Part shown: in pieces, positions 6,813 through 23,434 of the stretch
Layout of the letters: every line of letters begins with the position of its first letter
How positions within the stretch are numbered: position 1 is the stretch's first letter
Assembly: GCA_031288475.1 (NCBI GenBank)
Contig: JAITRJ010000045.1
Location: 8,743-72,742, forward strand
Length of the DNA stretch: 64,000 nucleotides
Direction: 5' to 3'
Source of the DNA: Helicobacteraceae bacterium
Lineage (GTDB): Bacteria; Campylobacterota; Campylobacteria; Campylobacterales; SZUA-545
The notes under the pieces: generated by a model
Database searches by the model: none
What the model was told of the DNA's origin: nothing
Seen by the model: only the letters and a program-made list of their open reading frames with translations
Translations under genes and position numbers: made by a program

Positions 6813-7614
6813 AAACCACCTTTCACTTGTAATCGCGCTTGTTACAATCCTGATGGGCTTTCAAACGCTTGTAGCGATCACGCAGATGATCGATTACTAT
6901 GAAGAGTCTTTGAGAAACGACTACGCCATAGTGATTCTTTCCAAATCAAAACTTGAGCTGGAGACCATAAAAAAGATCATTCCATATTCAGAGCGGCTAG
7001 AAGCTGTGGATGTCGCTGATTTTTTAAGCGAGATAAAAGAGACCGTAGGAGACAGCAACTACGCGTTTATAAAGGGGGCGATGCCGTTTTTTTACCGTTT
7101 GAAATTAAATCGCTATCCTTCGATTGGGGAGCGCAATTCTATCGAAAGGGAAATATCCGCCATAAAGTCTGTTACACGCGTAGAAACCTTTGCCAAAAGC
7201 GAAAATAAAACTTATAAAATGCTGCTTCTGAGCAAACGGATACTTCTGATTTTCGCGTCGTTGATCGCCGCTGTCGCTATTCTACTGATCGTGAGGCAGA
7301 TGGAAGTTTGGCGTTATGAACACTCCAAGCGCATCGCTATAATGGCGATTTTCGGCGCTCCTTTGTGGCTTAGAAGCGCGGTTCTTTTAAAACTGGTTTT
7401 CGTAGACTCTCTCATTTCAAGCGCGGCTGTGGGCGGTTTATTTTATTATCTTTCTGCCGATTCTAGCATTAGCGTAATGATGACGGAGATGGGGCTGGCG
7501 GGTATTCGATATAACCCTCTGCTTTCAAGCCTGACGCTACTCGGATTGTCGGTGTCTGTCTCGCTGTTTTGCGCGGTTTACGTAATTTATAGCGTGAAAG
7601 AAAAAAATGAATAA
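6799..7614 (+). CDS. ftsX: Cell division permease FtsX
   Basis: Four-TM FtsX topology with IMAIFGA motif; lies between ftsE and envC. Confidence 0.85.
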   Translation: MRSLKNHLSLVIALVTILMGFQTLVAITQMIDYYEESLRNDYAIVILSKSKLELETIKKIIPYSERLEAVDVADFLSEIKETVGDSNYAFIKGAMPFFYRLKLNRYPSIGERNSIEREISAIKSVTRVETFAKSENKTYKMLLLSKRILLIFASLIAAVAILLIVRQMEVWRYEHSKRIAIMAIFGAPLWLRSAVLLKLVFVDSLISSAAVGGLFYYLSADSSISVMMTEMGLAGIRYNPLLSSLTLLGLSVSVSLFCAVYVIYSVKEKNE

Positions 7615-8836
7615 AACGATTCGTTGTCTGATCTTCTTTCTCATCAGCTTCGGCGTGGTTTCGTCCAAGACGCTCTCGGAGATAGAAGGCGAGATCGCGT
7701 CCGCTCAGCAAAATATCACAAAAAAACAAAACGATCAGGGAGCTCTGCAGAGTAAGATCGATAAGCTGTCAAAAGAGATAGTCGGCATAACGGCGGAGCT
7801 AAAACAGCTTGATAAGCAGATAGAAGCGAACAAAAAAGAGATTGACGGACTGCTTAAAATCGTAAGCGCCCAGCGTGGCGAAAGGGAACGGCTTACCAAC
7901 GAGCGCGGCAAACTGCTTGCGGAGAAAGAGCGTATTGATGGGCAGCTTGCGAATCTTCTGATGAAGCATACGGCGCAAAGCATTGTTTTAGACGGCTCCG
8001 ATACTTCAAACGAGGAGGATATTGTTAAAGAGACAATGTTTTATATAATGAAAGAGCGCGTAAAAAATGAGAGTGTTATATTAAAAACGGCGTACAATTC
8101 GGTTTCAAAGGATATTGAAGCGGTAGAATCAAAGATAGCGGCCATGCTTAAAAATCTTGACGATCTGACCGCAAGTCAGGAAGTACAGAAGGAACTTTAC
8201 AAAAAACAGACGCAACTGTTAGCGAATCTGGATAAACAAAAAAGCAGCTATCTATCACAACTGGAGACGCTGATCGATCATCAAAACCGCGAGCGTCAGC
8301 TTCTTGCCGATCTTAATATCGTTCGTCAGAAAACTGTCGATCAGATGAGGCAGGCGCAGCTTGACAACCGTGTTTGGGAGGGCGCGGACGCTCTTTCCGT
8401 CAAGCATTACGGATCATCGTTCCAAAACGCTGGCAACAGCCGCTACGACGGAAAAAAGGTTAAAGCGCCGCTGGATTCTATCCCGATCTCGATCGTTAAG
8501 GAATTCGGACCATATACCGATCCAATTTACAATATAAAAATCCACAATGATTCGGTAACGTTAAGACCAAACGACCGCGACGCTCTGGTGCGCAGCGTAT
8601 TGCCGGGCAAGGTTGTATTTGCCGACAACCTGAAACTTCTTGGGAAAGTAGTGATTATTGAGCACCGCGACAACATTCATACGATATACCGCAATCTTGA
8701 AAGCATCTCGCCGAACATAAGAATCGATCGAAGCCTTAAAGAGCGCGAATCAGTAGGCAGGGTAAACACCGAACTGGTATTTGAGGTAACAAAGGACGGA
8801 CTGCCCATCAACCCGTTGCAATTAATACTTTTATAA
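7607..8836 (+). CDS. envC: Murein hydrolase activator EnvC-like (coiled coil + degenerate M23)
   Basis: Signal peptide, long coiled coil, and C-terminal M23 fold ending INP that lacks the HxxxD/HxH zinc ligands. Confidence 0.8.
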   Translation: MNKTIRCLIFFLISFGVVSSKTLSEIEGEIASAQQNITKKQNDQGALQSKIDKLSKEIVGITAELKQLDKQIEANKKEIDGLLKIVSAQRGERERLTNERGKLLAEKERIDGQLANLLMKHTAQSIVLDGSDTSNEEDIVKETMFYIMKERVKNESVILKTAYNSVSKDIEAVESKIAAMLKNLDDLTASQEVQKELYKKQTQLLANLDKQKSSYLSQLETLIDHQNRERQLLADLNIVRQKTVDQMRQAQLDNRVWEGADALSVKHYGSSFQNAGNSRYDGKKVKAPLDSIPISIVKEFGPYTDPIYNIKIHNDSVTLRPNDRDALVRSVLPGKVVFADNLKLLGKVVIIEHRDNIHTIYRNLESISPNIRIDRSLKERESVGRVNTELVFEVTKDGLPINPLQLILL

Positions 8837-18702: not shown

Positions 18703-19101
18703 ATGCACGAAACCCTGAAGAGAACAAGCAAACCCAAGATCGGCAGCGAATAGGGATTTGGCATAACTTTCTTCGTTTTTTTTGCCGTTTTAGCGGCGTT
18801 TAATCCGCTAGAACTCCGTATCGCGTGGCTTACGGCGGCAATCTGTTTCGCAGCTTCGGCGCTTTTCCTTCCTGCCGCGCTGAAGCCGTTAAATTTTCTG
18901 TGGTTTTATTTCGGTCAGGCGTTGCATAAAGTGACTAATCCTGTTATTTTAGGCGTTCTGTTCTTTCTCGTAATTACTCCAATCGCTTTTTTGACGCGGC
19001 TTCTTGGCAAAAATATTCTTTCGCTTTCGTTTGATAAAAAACACGATAGCTACTGGATCAGGCGCGAAACCGGCGAAACGTCGATGAAACATCAATTCTA
19101 A
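18703..19101 (+). pseudogene. SxtJ-family membrane protein interrupted by in-frame TAG at codon 17
   Basis: Manual translation MHETLKRTSKPKIGSE*GFGITFF...LKPLNFLWFYFGQALHKVTNPVILGVLFFLVITPIAFLTRLLGKNIL...SYWIRR...SMKHQF. The frame is otherwise open for 132 codons; TAG at 18751-18753. Confidence 0.85.
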
Positions 19102-19110
19102 GGAGTAAAA

Positions 19111-19263
19111 GTGTCCTTTCTGTCAGAACTTTGGCTGTTTATGAAAACCAGAAAAAAATATTGGCTGGCGCCGATTATCATTATGATGGTTCTGCTTGGA
19201 GGGCTGATTGTTCTGTCATCAAGCGGTTCCGCGGCGGCGCCGTTTATATATACGCTGTTTTAA
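19111..19263 (+). CDS. Small membrane protein, SxtK/DUF5989 family (50 aa)
   Basis: AGGAG RBS and GTG start. Translation MSFLSELWLFMKTRKKYWLAPIIIMMVLLGGLIVLSSSGSAAAPFIYTLF. Confidence 0.9.
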   Translation: MSFLSELWLFMKTRKKYWLAPIIIMMVLLGGLIVLSSSGSAAAPFIYTLF

Positions 19264-19275
19264 GATACGGGTTTA

Positions 19276-20389
19276 ATGAAGAGAAAATTTATTTTCCCAG
19301 TTATATCCGTGTGTTTAGGCGCGCTGATCGCGCTGGTTATGCTAGAAATTTTCCTGCGGTTTTTCCCCGTCGGCGAATCGCTGTTTTTTCAAAGCGTGAA
19401 CGAAGAGAATCCCGTTTTCCGCGCCGAACCGGACAGAAGCGGCTGGTATTCCAAAAATTGGAATTTTAAACACGCGGCAAGATGGCGCAGCAATAACGAC
19501 GGGTTTATAAACGATCGGGATTATAAGACACCAATTGAGAGAGAAACGGAATCGACCGGGTTGATCGCGGTGATCGGGGATTCCTATGTAGAAGCGCTTA
19601 TTGTCCCTCCGCGGGAGAGTTTTTTTGAGCGTTTGGAGAAAGAAATGGAAGGGCGTCAGCTTGTTTACTCCTTCGGATTTAGCGGCGCGCCCCTCAGCCA
19701 GTATCTTATTTGGGCGCGATACGCGCAAGAAACCTATAAAAACGACTATCTGATCGTTCTTGTGATCGGCAACGATTTTGATGAAAGCCTGTTGGAGTAT
19801 AAAAGCGCCGAAGGAGGTCATTATTACGAAAAATCCGAAGGCGGCTTAAAGCTTAAACGCGTTGATTTTACTCCCTCGATAATGGGACGTGTCGCGCGTC
19901 GTTTTTTTATTTTTCAATATACAGCGCACAATATACAGCTTCTATTACCCCCCCCCCCCCCCCCCATCTTCCCCCGAAAGACAATACGCGGGTAACGCCG
20001 CATACGACGCTGACGAAAAGCGGATTAACGATTCAAAGGAAGCGGTCGATCAATTTCTGAAAGATATTCCGGTCTATTCTGGTCTGCCAAAGGATCGAAT
20101 TTTATTTATAGTAGATTGCGTCAGAGACGATAATTTTTACAGCGGTAATCCAGACCCGAACAGTTACGCGGCGCAGATGTTCGCGTATTTTTTGGAGAAT
20201 GCTGAATTAAACGGCTTTAACGCGATTGATATGCAAAAGTATTTTACAAACGACTACGCGATCAATAAACAGCGTTTTGAGTTTCCGGATGACGGACACT
20301 GGAATAGCGCAGGACACCGGGTTGCATATGAAGCTATTATGAATGAGAAAAACTTCGCAAACTACCTGAATAGCGTGGATCGCGAATGA
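19276..20389 (+). CDS. Membrane-anchored SGNH/GDSL acyltransferase-like protein, frameshifted at poly-C tract (phase-variable, OFF in this sequence)
   Basis: N-terminal TM helix, IGDSY (block I) and IGNDF (block III) in ORF 19276-19995; DGHWN (DxH) in ORF 19889-20389. Removing one C joins them into 370 aa. Confidence 0.85.
19948..19965 (+). repeat. Homopolymeric C18 tract (simple sequence repeat)
   Basis: 18 consecutive C at the frame junction of the SGNH gene. Confidence 0.95.
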
Positions 20390-22218
20390 AGATTCTGGGA
20401 ATATCAGCATTTTATCACGACAGCGCCGCCGCGCTGATTATCGACGGAGAGATCGCCGCTGCCGCTCAGGAGGAAAGATTTACAAGAATTAAACACGATC
20501 CCAGCTTCCCGAACAACGCTATTGAATGGATACTTTCCTCGCGGAAAATATCGTTAAGCGAGATCGATTTCGCGGTATTTTACGATAAGCCTTTTTTGAA
20601 ATTTGAACGTTTGCTGGAAACATACGTCGCTTTTGCGCCCAAAGGTTTCGTCTCTTTTCAAAAAGCGATGCCAATCTGGCTTGCGGAAAAACTATTTCAA
20701 AAAGACCTGCTTCGCAGACAGCTAGCTCGATTCGCGCCGGATTTCGATTGGCGGAATAAGCTGCTTTTCTGCGAGCATCATCTAAGCCATGCCGCCAGCG
20801 CTTTCTTTCCTTCCCCGTTTGAAAAAGCGGTTGCTTTGACGATGGACGGCGTAGGCGAATGGGCGACGACATCAATTGCGTTTGGAGATAAAAATACGCT
20901 GAGGATCGATCGGGAACTGCATTTTCCGCACTCTCTTGGTCTGCTATATTCCGCGCTGACATATTACGCGGGGTTCAAGGTCAATTCGGGCGAATATAAG
21001 ATCATGGGGCTTGCACCCTATGGAGAACCCAAATACGCGCAAGTAATTTTCGACAATCTGATCGATCTTAAAGACGACGGATCGTTCAGGCTGAATCAGT
21101 CATATTTCGACTATTGCACAGGGTTGAAAATGACAAATAAAAAGTTTGATGTCCTTTTTGGCGGCGCGGCGCGAAAGGCGGACGATCCGCTTACGCAGCG
21201 GGAAATGGATCTTGCCGCCTCGATTCAGGCGGTAACGGAAGAGATTATTTTACGCATAGTACGCTCCATAGCGAAAGAAACGGGGGAAGAAAACCTCTGC
21301 TTAGCCGGCGGCGTAGCGCTTAACTGCGTGGCAAACGGCAAACTCCTAAAGAAGGGATATTTCAAGCGGATGTGGATTCAGCCTGCGGCGGGGGATGCCG
21401 GCGGCGCGATCGGCGCAGCTTTAACGGCATATTACGTTCATCTGGGAAATCCCCGCGTCATCAACGACGGAGATTCGATGAAAGGCTCTTATCTCGGGCC
21501 ATCGTTCTCAGCCGACGAAGCGGCAAAACGGCTTACGAAGGTCGGAGCCGCATTTGAAACGCTTGACGAGGAGACTCTGTTAGACAGAGTGGTCTCCGCT
21601 CTGTGCGAAGGCAAGGCGATTGGTTGGTTTCAAGGCAGAATGGAGTTTGGACCGCGAGCTTTGGGCGCAAGGTCGATTATCGCCGATCCTCGTTCGATCA
21701 CAATGCAGAAAACCCTTAATCTAAAGATCAAATTCCGTGAAAGTTTCCGCCCGTTCGCTCCTTCGGTTTTAAGCGAAAAGGCAGGCGATTATTTCGAACT
21801 GGATGAAAAAAGTCCATATATGCTCCTGACAGCAGACGTACGTGAAAATTTGCGGCGCGCAATGAGCGAAGAAGAGCAGGCGCTGTTTGGAATTGATAAG
21901 CTGAACAGACCGCGATCCTCTATCTCCGCCGTTACGCACGTCGACTATTCGGCGCGCGTGCAAACCGTTCATAAAATGACAAACCCGCGCTATCACGCGC
22001 TTATAAGCCGCTTCGAGGCAAAAACCGGATGCGCAGTTTTGGTAAACACCTCGTTTAACGTGCGCGGAGAACCGATCGTATGTTCGCCCGAAGATGCGTT
22101 TAGATGTTTTATGGGAACCGGACTGGACGTTCTTGTCGTGGAAAACTGTTATATGGAAAAACCGTTTCAAAATCCTGCATTGAAACTTGATTATAAAAGC
22201 GCATTTGAACCGGATTAG
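20386..22218 (+). CDS. O-carbamoyltransferase, CmcH/NodU/TobZ (SxtI-like) family
   Basis: HDSAAAL, EERFTRIKH, EHHLSHA, DGVGE, GEYKIMGLAPYG, GGVALNC, EFGPRALG, RESFRPFAP and NTSFN. Confidence 0.95.
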   Translation: MKILGISAFYHDSAAALIIDGEIAAAAQEERFTRIKHDPSFPNNAIEWILSSRKISLSEIDFAVFYDKPFLKFERLLETYVAFAPKGFVSFQKAMPIWLAEKLFQKDLLRRQLARFAPDFDWRNKLLFCEHHLSHAASAFFPSPFEKAVALTMDGVGEWATTSIAFGDKNTLRIDRELHFPHSLGLLYSALTYYAGFKVNSGEYKIMGLAPYGEPKYAQVIFDNLIDLKDDGSFRLNQSYFDYCTGLKMTNKKFDVLFGGAARKADDPLTQREMDLAASIQAVTEEIILRIVRSIAKETGEENLCLAGGVALNCVANGKLLKKGYFKRMWIQPAAGDAGGAIGAALTAYYVHLGNPRVINDGDSMKGSYLGPSFSADEAAKRLTKVGAAFETLDEETLLDRVVSALCEGKAIGWFQGRMEFGPRALGARSIIADPRSITMQKTLNLKIKFRESFRPFAPSVLSEKAGDYFELDEKSPYMLLTADVRENLRRAMSEEEQALFGIDKLNRPRSSISAVTHVDYSARVQTVHKMTNPRYHALISRFEAKTGCAVLVNTSFNVRGEPIVCSPEDAFRCFMGTGLDVLVVENCYMEKPFQNPALKLDYKSAFEPD

Positions 22219-22279: not shown

Positions 22280-23434
22280 CTATTCGATGTGGAGGTGGTT
22301 GCCTTTCTGTATTTTGCAGATCTTCTTTATCCGCGCTGCGTCTAACGAAAAATCATCAAGATTTTTATACTCTTTGCGTCTGTTTATTGCCTCTGCTGCA
22401 GATAAACTTGCGATTGGAAAATTTTCGGTTACCCCATGCCTGTTTTTTGATACAATAAATCCATTTTTTACGTCTTCCTCATTATAGAGCGAAAGGATTC
22501 TCTGGCTGAAGGTTCCGATCACGCTCCTGCAATACTCCTCTCCGTCGTGATAATCGGTTATTACGACAAAATCGTCGCCTCCGATATGACCTATGAACTC
22601 ATTTTTCAGGGAGTTGGTTTTCAGAATATCTGAGAGTAACTTCAGCATCAGATCGCCGTTGACAAAGCCGTAAGCATCGTTATACGCCTTGAAATTATTT
22701 ATGTCGTAGTATGTTATACAGTACGGCTTTGTGTCGAATATCCATCGGAAAATTTCGCCTTCTATTAACAAGTTTCCTGATAGTCCGGTAAGTGGGTTTG
22801 AGTGTTTGGCGATCTCTATTTGAATTCTTGTTCTAGCATCCAGCAGATCTTTGACTGTTACCACGCCGAAATACTTGTTGTCTTTCTCAAGCACAATAGG
22901 ATTGCAGAGTCTCTTGTAAGGTCTCTGCATGGCGATTCGAGAAACGTCGTCGACATTTATGCTTTGATCCACCTTCAGAAAATCGGTTCGCATTAGTTCG
23001 CTTATGTACTTCCGTCGGCTTATAAAATGACCGTATATTTCGTCGAACGCCGCAAACAAATCTGTTTTTGTTAAATCATATTGGCTTATTTTCATCCACT
23101 ATATATATCTCTGTTACCGCCGGATTTGCTTTAGTCATCTCAAAAAGTGTCAATGCTTTTTCGTCTGGCGTGCATGTATAACCATTTTTGCTCAAAACCC
23201 CAATTCTTGGCTGAACGTAGTTTGTGATATTTTCAATGTAATATTTTGATTGAGTGGCGGCAATTATCTTTGTTTTTTTCAGGATCAATCTCGTCAAAGG
23301 ATTTCTTAGGGATCCCAATGAAAAAACCCTGCCCGAAATTAACGCCCAGTTTTATAAACGTGCGAAGTTCCTTTTCGATTCCAATTCCTTTCGCAATTAA
23401 ATTTATTTTCGTATTTCTGCAGAAAAAGAATTAG
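22280..23434 (-). pseudogene. Truncated, frameshifted EAL-CBS-GGDEF c-di-GMP protein (3' CBS-GGDEF portion 22280-23095 still open)
   Basis: EAL C-terminal remnant IAKGIGIEKELRTFIKLGVNFGQGFFIG near 23300-23400, then two frame changes, then CBS and NPLTGL...DINNFKAYNDAYG...HIGGDDF; AT-rich. Confidence 0.8.

Follow-up and report, generated by a model that had tools for sequence, protein, structure and literature searches.

The window analysed here is a stretch of 64,000 nucleotides from contig JAITRJ010000045.1 of a Helicobacteraceae bacterium. Relatives place it among the Campylobacterota, and the only sequencing run found to contain it is from a termite gut metagenome, its possible source. The window contains a run of four genes, sxtJ, sxtK, an SGNH gene and a carbamoyltransferase gene, in which the second gene encodes a 50-residue membrane peptide of the DUF5989 (SxtK) family. 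We propose, with a probability of about 0.55, that this peptide is a tyrosine carbamoyl shuttle working without an MBOAT protein, in a transferase-SxtJ-SxtK-SGNH module whose SGNH member would place the carbamoyl group on an envelope acceptor, which is likely a surface glycan. The proposal is built on direct observations, namely the family identity of the peptide, the invariance of its tail Tyr, the co-occurrence of the partner genes, natural fusions, intact catalytic residues and homopolymer tracts. The module in the window is itself probably inactive, either switched off or decaying, given a stop codon in sxtJ and an SGNH gene that is out of frame, and therefore the functional argument rests on the family. 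The elements of the peptide gene are as follows.

19101..19105, + strand: AGGAG ribosome-binding site, five bases 5' of the GTG start, which shares the final base of the sxtJ stop codon (sequence).
19111..19263, + strand: DUF5989/SxtK membrane peptide, 50 residues, GTG start (PF19451, 85.9 bits).
19243..19260, + strand: C-terminal hexapeptide FIYTLF with the Tyr47 codon at 19249-19251, the proposed carbamoyl carrier (Tyr conservation; motif of PMC12148441).

The open reading frame ends with TAA at 19261-19263, and its translation is MSFLSELWLFMKTRKKYWLAPIIIMMVLLGGLIVLSSSGSAAAPFIYTLF. Residues 12-16 form the basic patch KTRKK and residues 19-37 a hydrophobic segment (mean Kyte-Doolittle value 2.47), followed by SSGSAAAP and FIYTLF. 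An initial annotation, made from the letters alone, had described the AGGAG, the KTRKK patch, a single hydrophobic segment, a Ser/Gly/Ala linker and a PFIYTLF end, and all of these were borne out by sequence, hydropathy and PF19451. It had also called the peptide unannotated, which is incorrect, as NCBI uses names such as "DUF5989 family protein" and it is the function alone that is missing. The match covered the whole PF19451 model (positions 1-49 of 49) at more than three times the Pfam cut-off of 27 bits, all 974 candidates of a homologue search were at E≤0.001, and only 2 of the 15,929 stop-to-stop frames of 40 or more residues in the genome had an F-x-Y-x-x-F ending, the peptide gene being one of the two. 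Hence, the frame is not a chance one. Promoter and terminator scans stayed at chance level (7 vs 4.4 and 9 vs 6.4, respectively), a PDB sequence search with the peptide profile returned chance matches only, and the ESM Atlas gave no usable match beyond PF19451. No RNA data set was listed as containing the stretch, which has no bearing on expression. The DUF5989 family is abundant, with 5177 cluster representatives, and the peptide cut-off was passed by 11 of 301 genomes of its own phylum (Campylobacterota), 45 of 251 genomes of the class of genome G315 (Thalassospiraceae, thus Alphaproteobacteria) and 76 of 151 genomes of the phylum of genome G316.

FIYTLF fits FXYXXF, which the available text of PMC12148441 defines as an acyl-shuttle motif. 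In that text, acylation is reported at the motif's Tyr for both DltX and PatA. The Tyr was at position -4 from the C-terminus in all of the 120 matches listed out of 974, which were chosen by overall similarity, and 112 of them ended in PFIYTLF. When only residues 1-40 were used as the query, 45 of 45 proteins ended in PF[IV]Y[TA][LI]F. A search with a tail-blind profile (residues 1-36) gave 200 matches, 175 of them distinct, and 174 homologues after one long unrelated open reading frame was removed; Tyr was at -4 in 172 of the 174 and the C-terminal residue was Phe in 157, with the bias that the loci scored had originally been found by queries containing the tail. One of the two exceptions was a sub-threshold match and the other had Tyr at -3. 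Among seven loci whose Pfam match missed the tail, six still had Tyr at -4 and one was not a peptide. The Tyr was the most fixed residue of the tail, and in the comparison of family C-termini that the initial annotation had suggested it hardly varies.

The tails of transferase-linked peptides were hydrophobic, with a mean hydropathy of 1.71 compared with -0.8 to 0.47 for MBOAT tails and -0.42 and -1.04 for DltX tails. The acidic or amide residues typical of the latter two were absent, and 161 of 164 transferase-linked tails had no D, E, K, R, N or Q. A group of orphan-type peptides (L180, L210-L213, L215-L217) had polar tails such as FEYDQY, FIYDNF and FFYGDQ; several lie beside SGNH genes, and no transferase match was present in the DNA stretches examined around them.

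Partner genes were counted within 10 kb of the peptide in 80 genome loci, the best 80 of 566. SxtJ was found in 75, the transferase in 74, SGNH in 53 and MBOAT in 4, and the 40 loci with full flanks gave 38, 38, 29 and 4, respectively. At the genome level, the 251 genomes of the G315 class were divided into the 45 that are peptide-positive and 206 others. SxtJ was present in 42/45 vs 2/206, and the SGNH profile in 37/45 vs 9/206 at E≤1e-20 and 41/45 vs 25/206 at 1e-15. The close transferase subfamily was found in 41 of the 45 and in 1 of the 35 negatives that were submitted out of the 206. In the family of the window's genome, the transferase occurred in 1 of 17 other genomes, G304 of the same genus, which has all four genes intact and in the same order.

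A survey of 40 stretches around weak or long-frame matches revealed natural fusions. Proteins from five genomes consist of an SGNH domain, membrane helices and a C-terminal DUF5989 confirmed by Pfam; they are 33-52% identical and adjoin transferase and short SxtJ genes. No entry for the fusion was found in the ESM Atlas. Four further proteins carry extra helices and the peptide without an SGNH domain, while L199 is an SxtJ-peptide fusion and L224 a transferase-SxtJ fusion (each a single case, detected with our own profiles). All ten fusion proteins examined have 3-5 Lys or Arg in the loop before the peptide helix and none in the tail, and this charge bias predicts that the Tyr tail is outside the membrane. 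If the SGNH domain is separated from the peptide helix by three helices, the tail would lie on the SGNH side. Most of the "longer" homologues could be put down to overcalled N-termini or to frameshifts in short contigs; these were excluded from the fusion counts, as were several long open frames in Planctomycetota (L166, L172, L175-L177) that proved spurious. Other Planctomycetota variants (L168-L171, L173, L179, L181, L182, L187) have the peptide behind extra helices, in some cases together with an SGNH domain, and their SxtJ proteins of about 70 residues comprise the long helix and tail only. The carbamoyl shuttle suggested in the initial annotation gains from the fixed Tyr, the linkage to a carbamoyltransferase and an anchored SGNH protein and the five SGNH fusions; the part of the analogy that does not carry over is the MBOAT loader, which the module would do without.

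DltX, which works with the MBOAT DltB and the SGNH-like DltD in teichoic-acid D-alanylation, shares with the peptide a length of about 50 residues, a basic N-side, one helix, a C-terminal FxYxxF and an SGNH-type partner. The DltX likeness noted initially therefore holds for layout and motif, but not beyond: the peptide had no match to the DltX model PF12459 at E≤0.1, where real DltX proteins scored 57-58 bits, and hhalign gave a probability of 1.65 to Listeria DltX. The window operon also differs in having no MBOAT, carrier protein or ligase and in having SxtJ, SGNH and carbamoyltransferase genes as neighbours; the tail is hydrophobic whereas that of DltX is polar, and the proposed donor is carbamoyl-AMP. 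Against the C-terminal helix plus tail of five MBOATs, a small set with four members taken from peptide loci, the peptide profile reached an hhalign probability of 63.9 (E 6.6e-5). The local alignment score of 23.7 was reached by 0 of 60 column shuffles and 0 of 60 motif-kept shuffles (maximum 20.3), and a comparison that left out the motif still gave a probability of 37. In sequence, then, the peptide resembles MBOAT C-terminal shuttle helices and not DltX itself. With the MBOAT-SGNH pairs PatA/PatB and AlgI/AlgJ/AlgX it shares a Pro-containing helix, a Gly turn and an FIY..F end, and its SGNH partners match the ALGX and GDSL models, with a fold similar to that of PatB. In those pairs the shuttle is fused to the MBOAT C-terminus, whereas here it is a separate protein or is joined to SGNH or SxtJ, and the position of the MBOAT is taken by a soluble carbamoyltransferase.

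The likeness to MBOAT helices raises the alternative that the tail is an acyl shuttle loaded with acetyl or another acyl group by a distant MBOAT or AT3 protein, the carbamoyltransferase acting in parallel on the same polymer. MBOAT genes were present in 5 of 5 Campylobacterota relatives tested and in 30 of the 45 peptide-positive genomes, and divergent DUF5989 peptides occur within SGNH-MBOAT operons (L026:9115-9246, L103:2634-2786, L183, L186, L203, L219), all of which would suit such a loader. We nevertheless regard it as very improbable, since no MBOAT was found in the other 15 of the 45, several with a peptide contig longer than 1 Mb, and neither MBOAT nor DltX was found in the 71%-complete genome of the window (AT3 was not searched for). 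Moreover, 7 of 7 complete non-DltB MBOAT C-termini carry their own Tyr tail, and there is a nearly one-to-one correspondence between the transferase subfamily and the peptide. Where the end is covered, the MBOATs of the peptide-containing SGNH-MBOAT operons likewise have their own Tyr tail, which would give two shuttles per system. On Tistrella mobilis pTM1, four short open reading frames (L103:2127-2977 and 6826-6969) flank the DUF5989-SGNH-MBOAT operon; they have a W-S/G-R-P core and a C-terminal Ser, and look like repeated peptide precursors.

The window transferase contains PF02543 and PF16861 domains with the conserved His and Asp residues present. It matches the CmcH/NodU transferases (TobZ, GdmN and the novobiocin transferase) over the full length with E values of 1e-76 to 1e-95, but its 143 bits do not reach the cut-off of 1000 bits for the NodU equivalog. 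Peptide-linked transferases are 62% identical by column and differ from the characterized enzymes in a longer, near-invariant amphipathic segment (65-103), whose counterpart in GdmN and the novobiocin enzyme is shorter and dissimilar. The SGNH partners are only about 15% identical, although the Ser is kept in 52 of 54, the His in 53 of 54 and an N-terminal hydrophobic segment in 50 of 54. A near-fixed transferase combined with diverse SGNH proteins points to a fixed input and variable outputs, as a shuttle predicts.

The predicted structure of the G304 SGNH protein (predicted local distance difference test score, pLDDT, 81) has a clear SGNH fold. Its best match is CgnD (PDB 8a2n; Z 19.4, root mean square deviation 3.2, 238 aligned residues), which also covers the N-terminal beta region, and PatB follows among many hydrolases (Z 15.9, deviation 3.2, 189 aligned). 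With CgnD at the top and PatB among hydrolases, the fold cannot separate a transferase from a hydrolase. The intact SxtJ orthologue of G304 matches PF19588 at 39.6 bits. The SxtJ model (pLDDT 91.9) has helices at 14-31, 37-53 and 55-98 and a conserved extended tail; a fold search with it gave no clear known fold (best Z 5.8).

Ten peptide-positive relatives of the same order were inspected for homopolymer tracts. In 8 of the 10, a poly-G tract of 9-11 bases lies near codon 50 of the transferase gene, and 7 of these 8 genes are out of frame.

Poly-G loci: L232, L233, L235, L237-L240 and L229 (genomes G001, G266, G226, G203, G088, G286, G044 and G150).

Of the remaining two, L234 is cut off by the edge of its contig and has a G76 run there, and L236 shows no transferase in the stretch examined. 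No C or G tract of nine or more bases was present within 3 kb of the peptide in the 80 loci from other phyla. In Campylobacter and Helicobacter, tracts of this kind are typical of phase-variable genes for surface structures, and their presence in transferase genes therefore supports a surface product. The SGNH gene of the window is interrupted at a C18 tract, which suggests a switch similar to the poly-G tracts of the relatives.

These data also bear on the view that the peptide is the final substrate, with Tyr carbamoylation as a stable mark, or else a regulator or an unchanging structural subunit, and that SGNH proteins are merely frequent neighbors. The extreme conservation of the peptide and of transferase segment 65-103 fits a fixed substrate, and the low identity among the SGNH partners also favors this view. 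We consider it improbable because the SGNH fusions and the genome-level co-occurrence speak against it, as do the poly-G tracts, which point to a selected surface product.

For the shuttle, we infer that the transferase loads the Tyr, that the group passes the membrane, that SGNH transfers it and that a glycan accepts it. The formation of carbamoyl-AMP is known for the TobZ/NodU/NovN family, and by family membership the transferase would make it from carbamoyl phosphate and ATP. SxtJ would then keep the transferase at the inner membrane face beside the peptide, with segment 65-103 as the docking or acceptor site. In the third and weakest step, the uncharged hydrophobic tail would dip through the membrane or flip, and Tyr47 would become an aryl carbamate; SxtJ and the peptide would here replace the MBOAT funnel. 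Finally, by analogy with DltD and PatB, the SGNH serine would accept the group and transfer it to an extracytoplasmic hydroxyl, and the diverse SGNH proteins would set the acceptor. For PatB, acetyl-FIYANF has served as a donor. The chemistry of a carbamoyl-Tyr is reasonable, as aryl carbamates can donate carbamoyl groups and are reactive towards serine hydrolases.

Several observations weigh against this mechanism. Its main problem is geometry: the transferase has no membrane segment, and this cytoplasmic enzyme must reach a tail predicted to be outside. In the SGNH fusions, the hydropathy scan finds three helices in 2 of 5 and two helices in 3 of 5, which would flip the parity; in these three, a first helix of lower hydrophobicity can be made out by eye. 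Thirteen further peptide positions show at least 90% conservation; with the whole peptide conserved, the invariant Tyr could be structural. No SGNH match was found in 27 of the 80 loci in the DNA examined, or in 11 of the 40 with full flanks. The genome-level counts overstate independence, since the genomes are related, their completeness is unknown and the SGNH profile was built from peptide neighbors. The divergent peptides in SGNH-MBOAT operons count against it as well. Characterized members of the transferase family (NodU, NovN, TobZ and GdmN) carbamoylate their acceptor directly. SxtL, the SGNH counterpart in saxitoxin clusters, was proposed to remove carbamoyl groups in the portion of PMC2679770 available. 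The accessible part of PMC10070186 describes CgnD as hydrolysing the leader peptide slowly; its assays ran for up to 96 h, and phenylmethylsulfonyl fluoride did not label the protein.

CgnD cuts both ways: it is a slow hydrolase, yet the crocagin cluster encodes the carbamoyltransferase CgnI alongside it and is alone among its kin in having one, and no SxtJ- or SxtK-like gene was among the supplement rows seen (PMC10070186, in part). CgnD may thus have a role in carbamoyl transfer. The hydrolase side is one of the points that favor a scaffold, in which SxtJ and the peptide tether the transferase to the inner face so that it directly carbamoylates a lipid-linked or exported substrate, while the tail docks the SGNH protein, a decarbamoylase, editor or other hydrolase. 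Such an arrangement follows the family norm of direct transfer, as in the solved relatives, and needs no membrane crossing, and SxtJ and the transferase do track the peptide more tightly than SGNH does. It is a serious alternative that we still find unlikely, because it leaves unexplained why the Tyr stays at -4 even in tails that have lost flanking Phe residues, why the likeness to MBOAT shuttle helices extends beyond the motif, and why a remover would be kept fused to the anchor.

The four genes correspond at the Pfam level to the sxtI-sxtJ-sxtK-sxtL block of cyanobacterial saxitoxin clusters, in which SxtJ and SxtK are given as unknown or hypothetical (PMC2679770, PMC2684587, both as far as available). 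In the window, the block is flanked by pyrH and a CBS-GGDEF gene, and no genome-wide search for core sxt genes was made. Since blocks of this type were found in many phyla, they represent a general module. The block is not evidence of toxin production. The literature on SxtK together with a carbamoyltransferase concerns saxitoxin producers. In the literature searched, from which subscription papers were mostly missing, neither DUF5989 nor an acyl shuttle linked to carbamoyl was found; FXYXXF turned up in records including versions of the PatA paper, and the idea of a carbamoyl shuttle was in no paper found. The text seen of PMC12148441 names two systems, MBOAT-SGNH and AT3-SGNH, and "carbamoyl" is nowhere in it. 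Tentatively, and at slightly less than even odds, the module may represent a third class of trans-membrane acylation beside these two, with a soluble ATP-dependent carbamoyltransferase, a Tyr loaded with the help of SxtJ/SxtK and diverse SGNH proteins, which would carbamoylate the envelope in a large share of Alphaproteobacteria and Planctomycetota and be phase-variable in gut Campylobacterota. If the shuttle is correct, the orphan families DUF5989 and SxtJ would gain functions, a Tyr shuttle could be loaded without a membrane acyltransferase and carry a non-thioester group, and SGNH proteins labelled hydrolases in such clusters would become candidate transferases. The frequency of the peptide, given above, suggests that carbamoylation of bacterial surfaces is widespread and has so far gone undescribed.

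The other features of the operon in the window are listed below.

18703..19101, + strand: sxtJ-like membrane protein gene with an in-frame TAG at codon 17 (18751-18753); the 3' part matches PF19588 weakly.
19276..19995, + strand: SGNH gene, 5' part, with an N-terminal membrane anchor (5-23) and GDS motif (codon 101, nucleotide 19576) (sequence, domain scan, hydropathy).
19948..19965, + strand: C18 tract, site of the SGNH frame shift and candidate phase-variation tract (run X1 contigs break at the tract).
19889..20389, + strand: SGNH gene, 3' frame, with DGHWN motif (nucleotide 20291; ALGX match, E 8.7e-05).
20386..22218, + strand: intact CmcH/NodU-family O-carbamoyltransferase, 610 residues, without membrane segment; His11, His131, His135, Asp154, Asp337 (domain scan, alignment, hydropathy).

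The breaks in both genes next to the peptide, sxtJ and SGNH, had been overlooked in the initial annotation. The sxtJ TAG is also present in a contig of run X1, which is not independent of the window, and since the X1 contigs break at the C18 tract its length is uncertain. Recoding of TAG was rejected: TAG terminates 176 of 730 long frames, and in only 23 does the frame stay open for a further 100 or more codons. The CBS and partial GGDEF protein (22280-23095, - strand) converges on the transferase gene, and its GGDEF match covers model positions 31-93 only. In G304 (L098) the operon is at a different chromosomal site from that of the window, and just 5' of it lies a second, truncated SGNH gene (L098:7621-8046, - strand) with a C8 tract at 7940. 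Another decaying copy, in G550 (L218), has a frameshifted peptide and an sxtJ stop, without a transferase match. L081 contains two peptides and many SGNH genes, and six SGNH matches lie downstream in Trichodesmium (L079). In a neighbor scan, 19 of 86 hand-picked flanking proteins matched glycan or envelope families and 30 matched nothing, a weak result without a control. The genome of the window (G000) has 30 poly-C/G tracts of at least nine bases, up to 36, which are possible contingency genes or assembly breaks.
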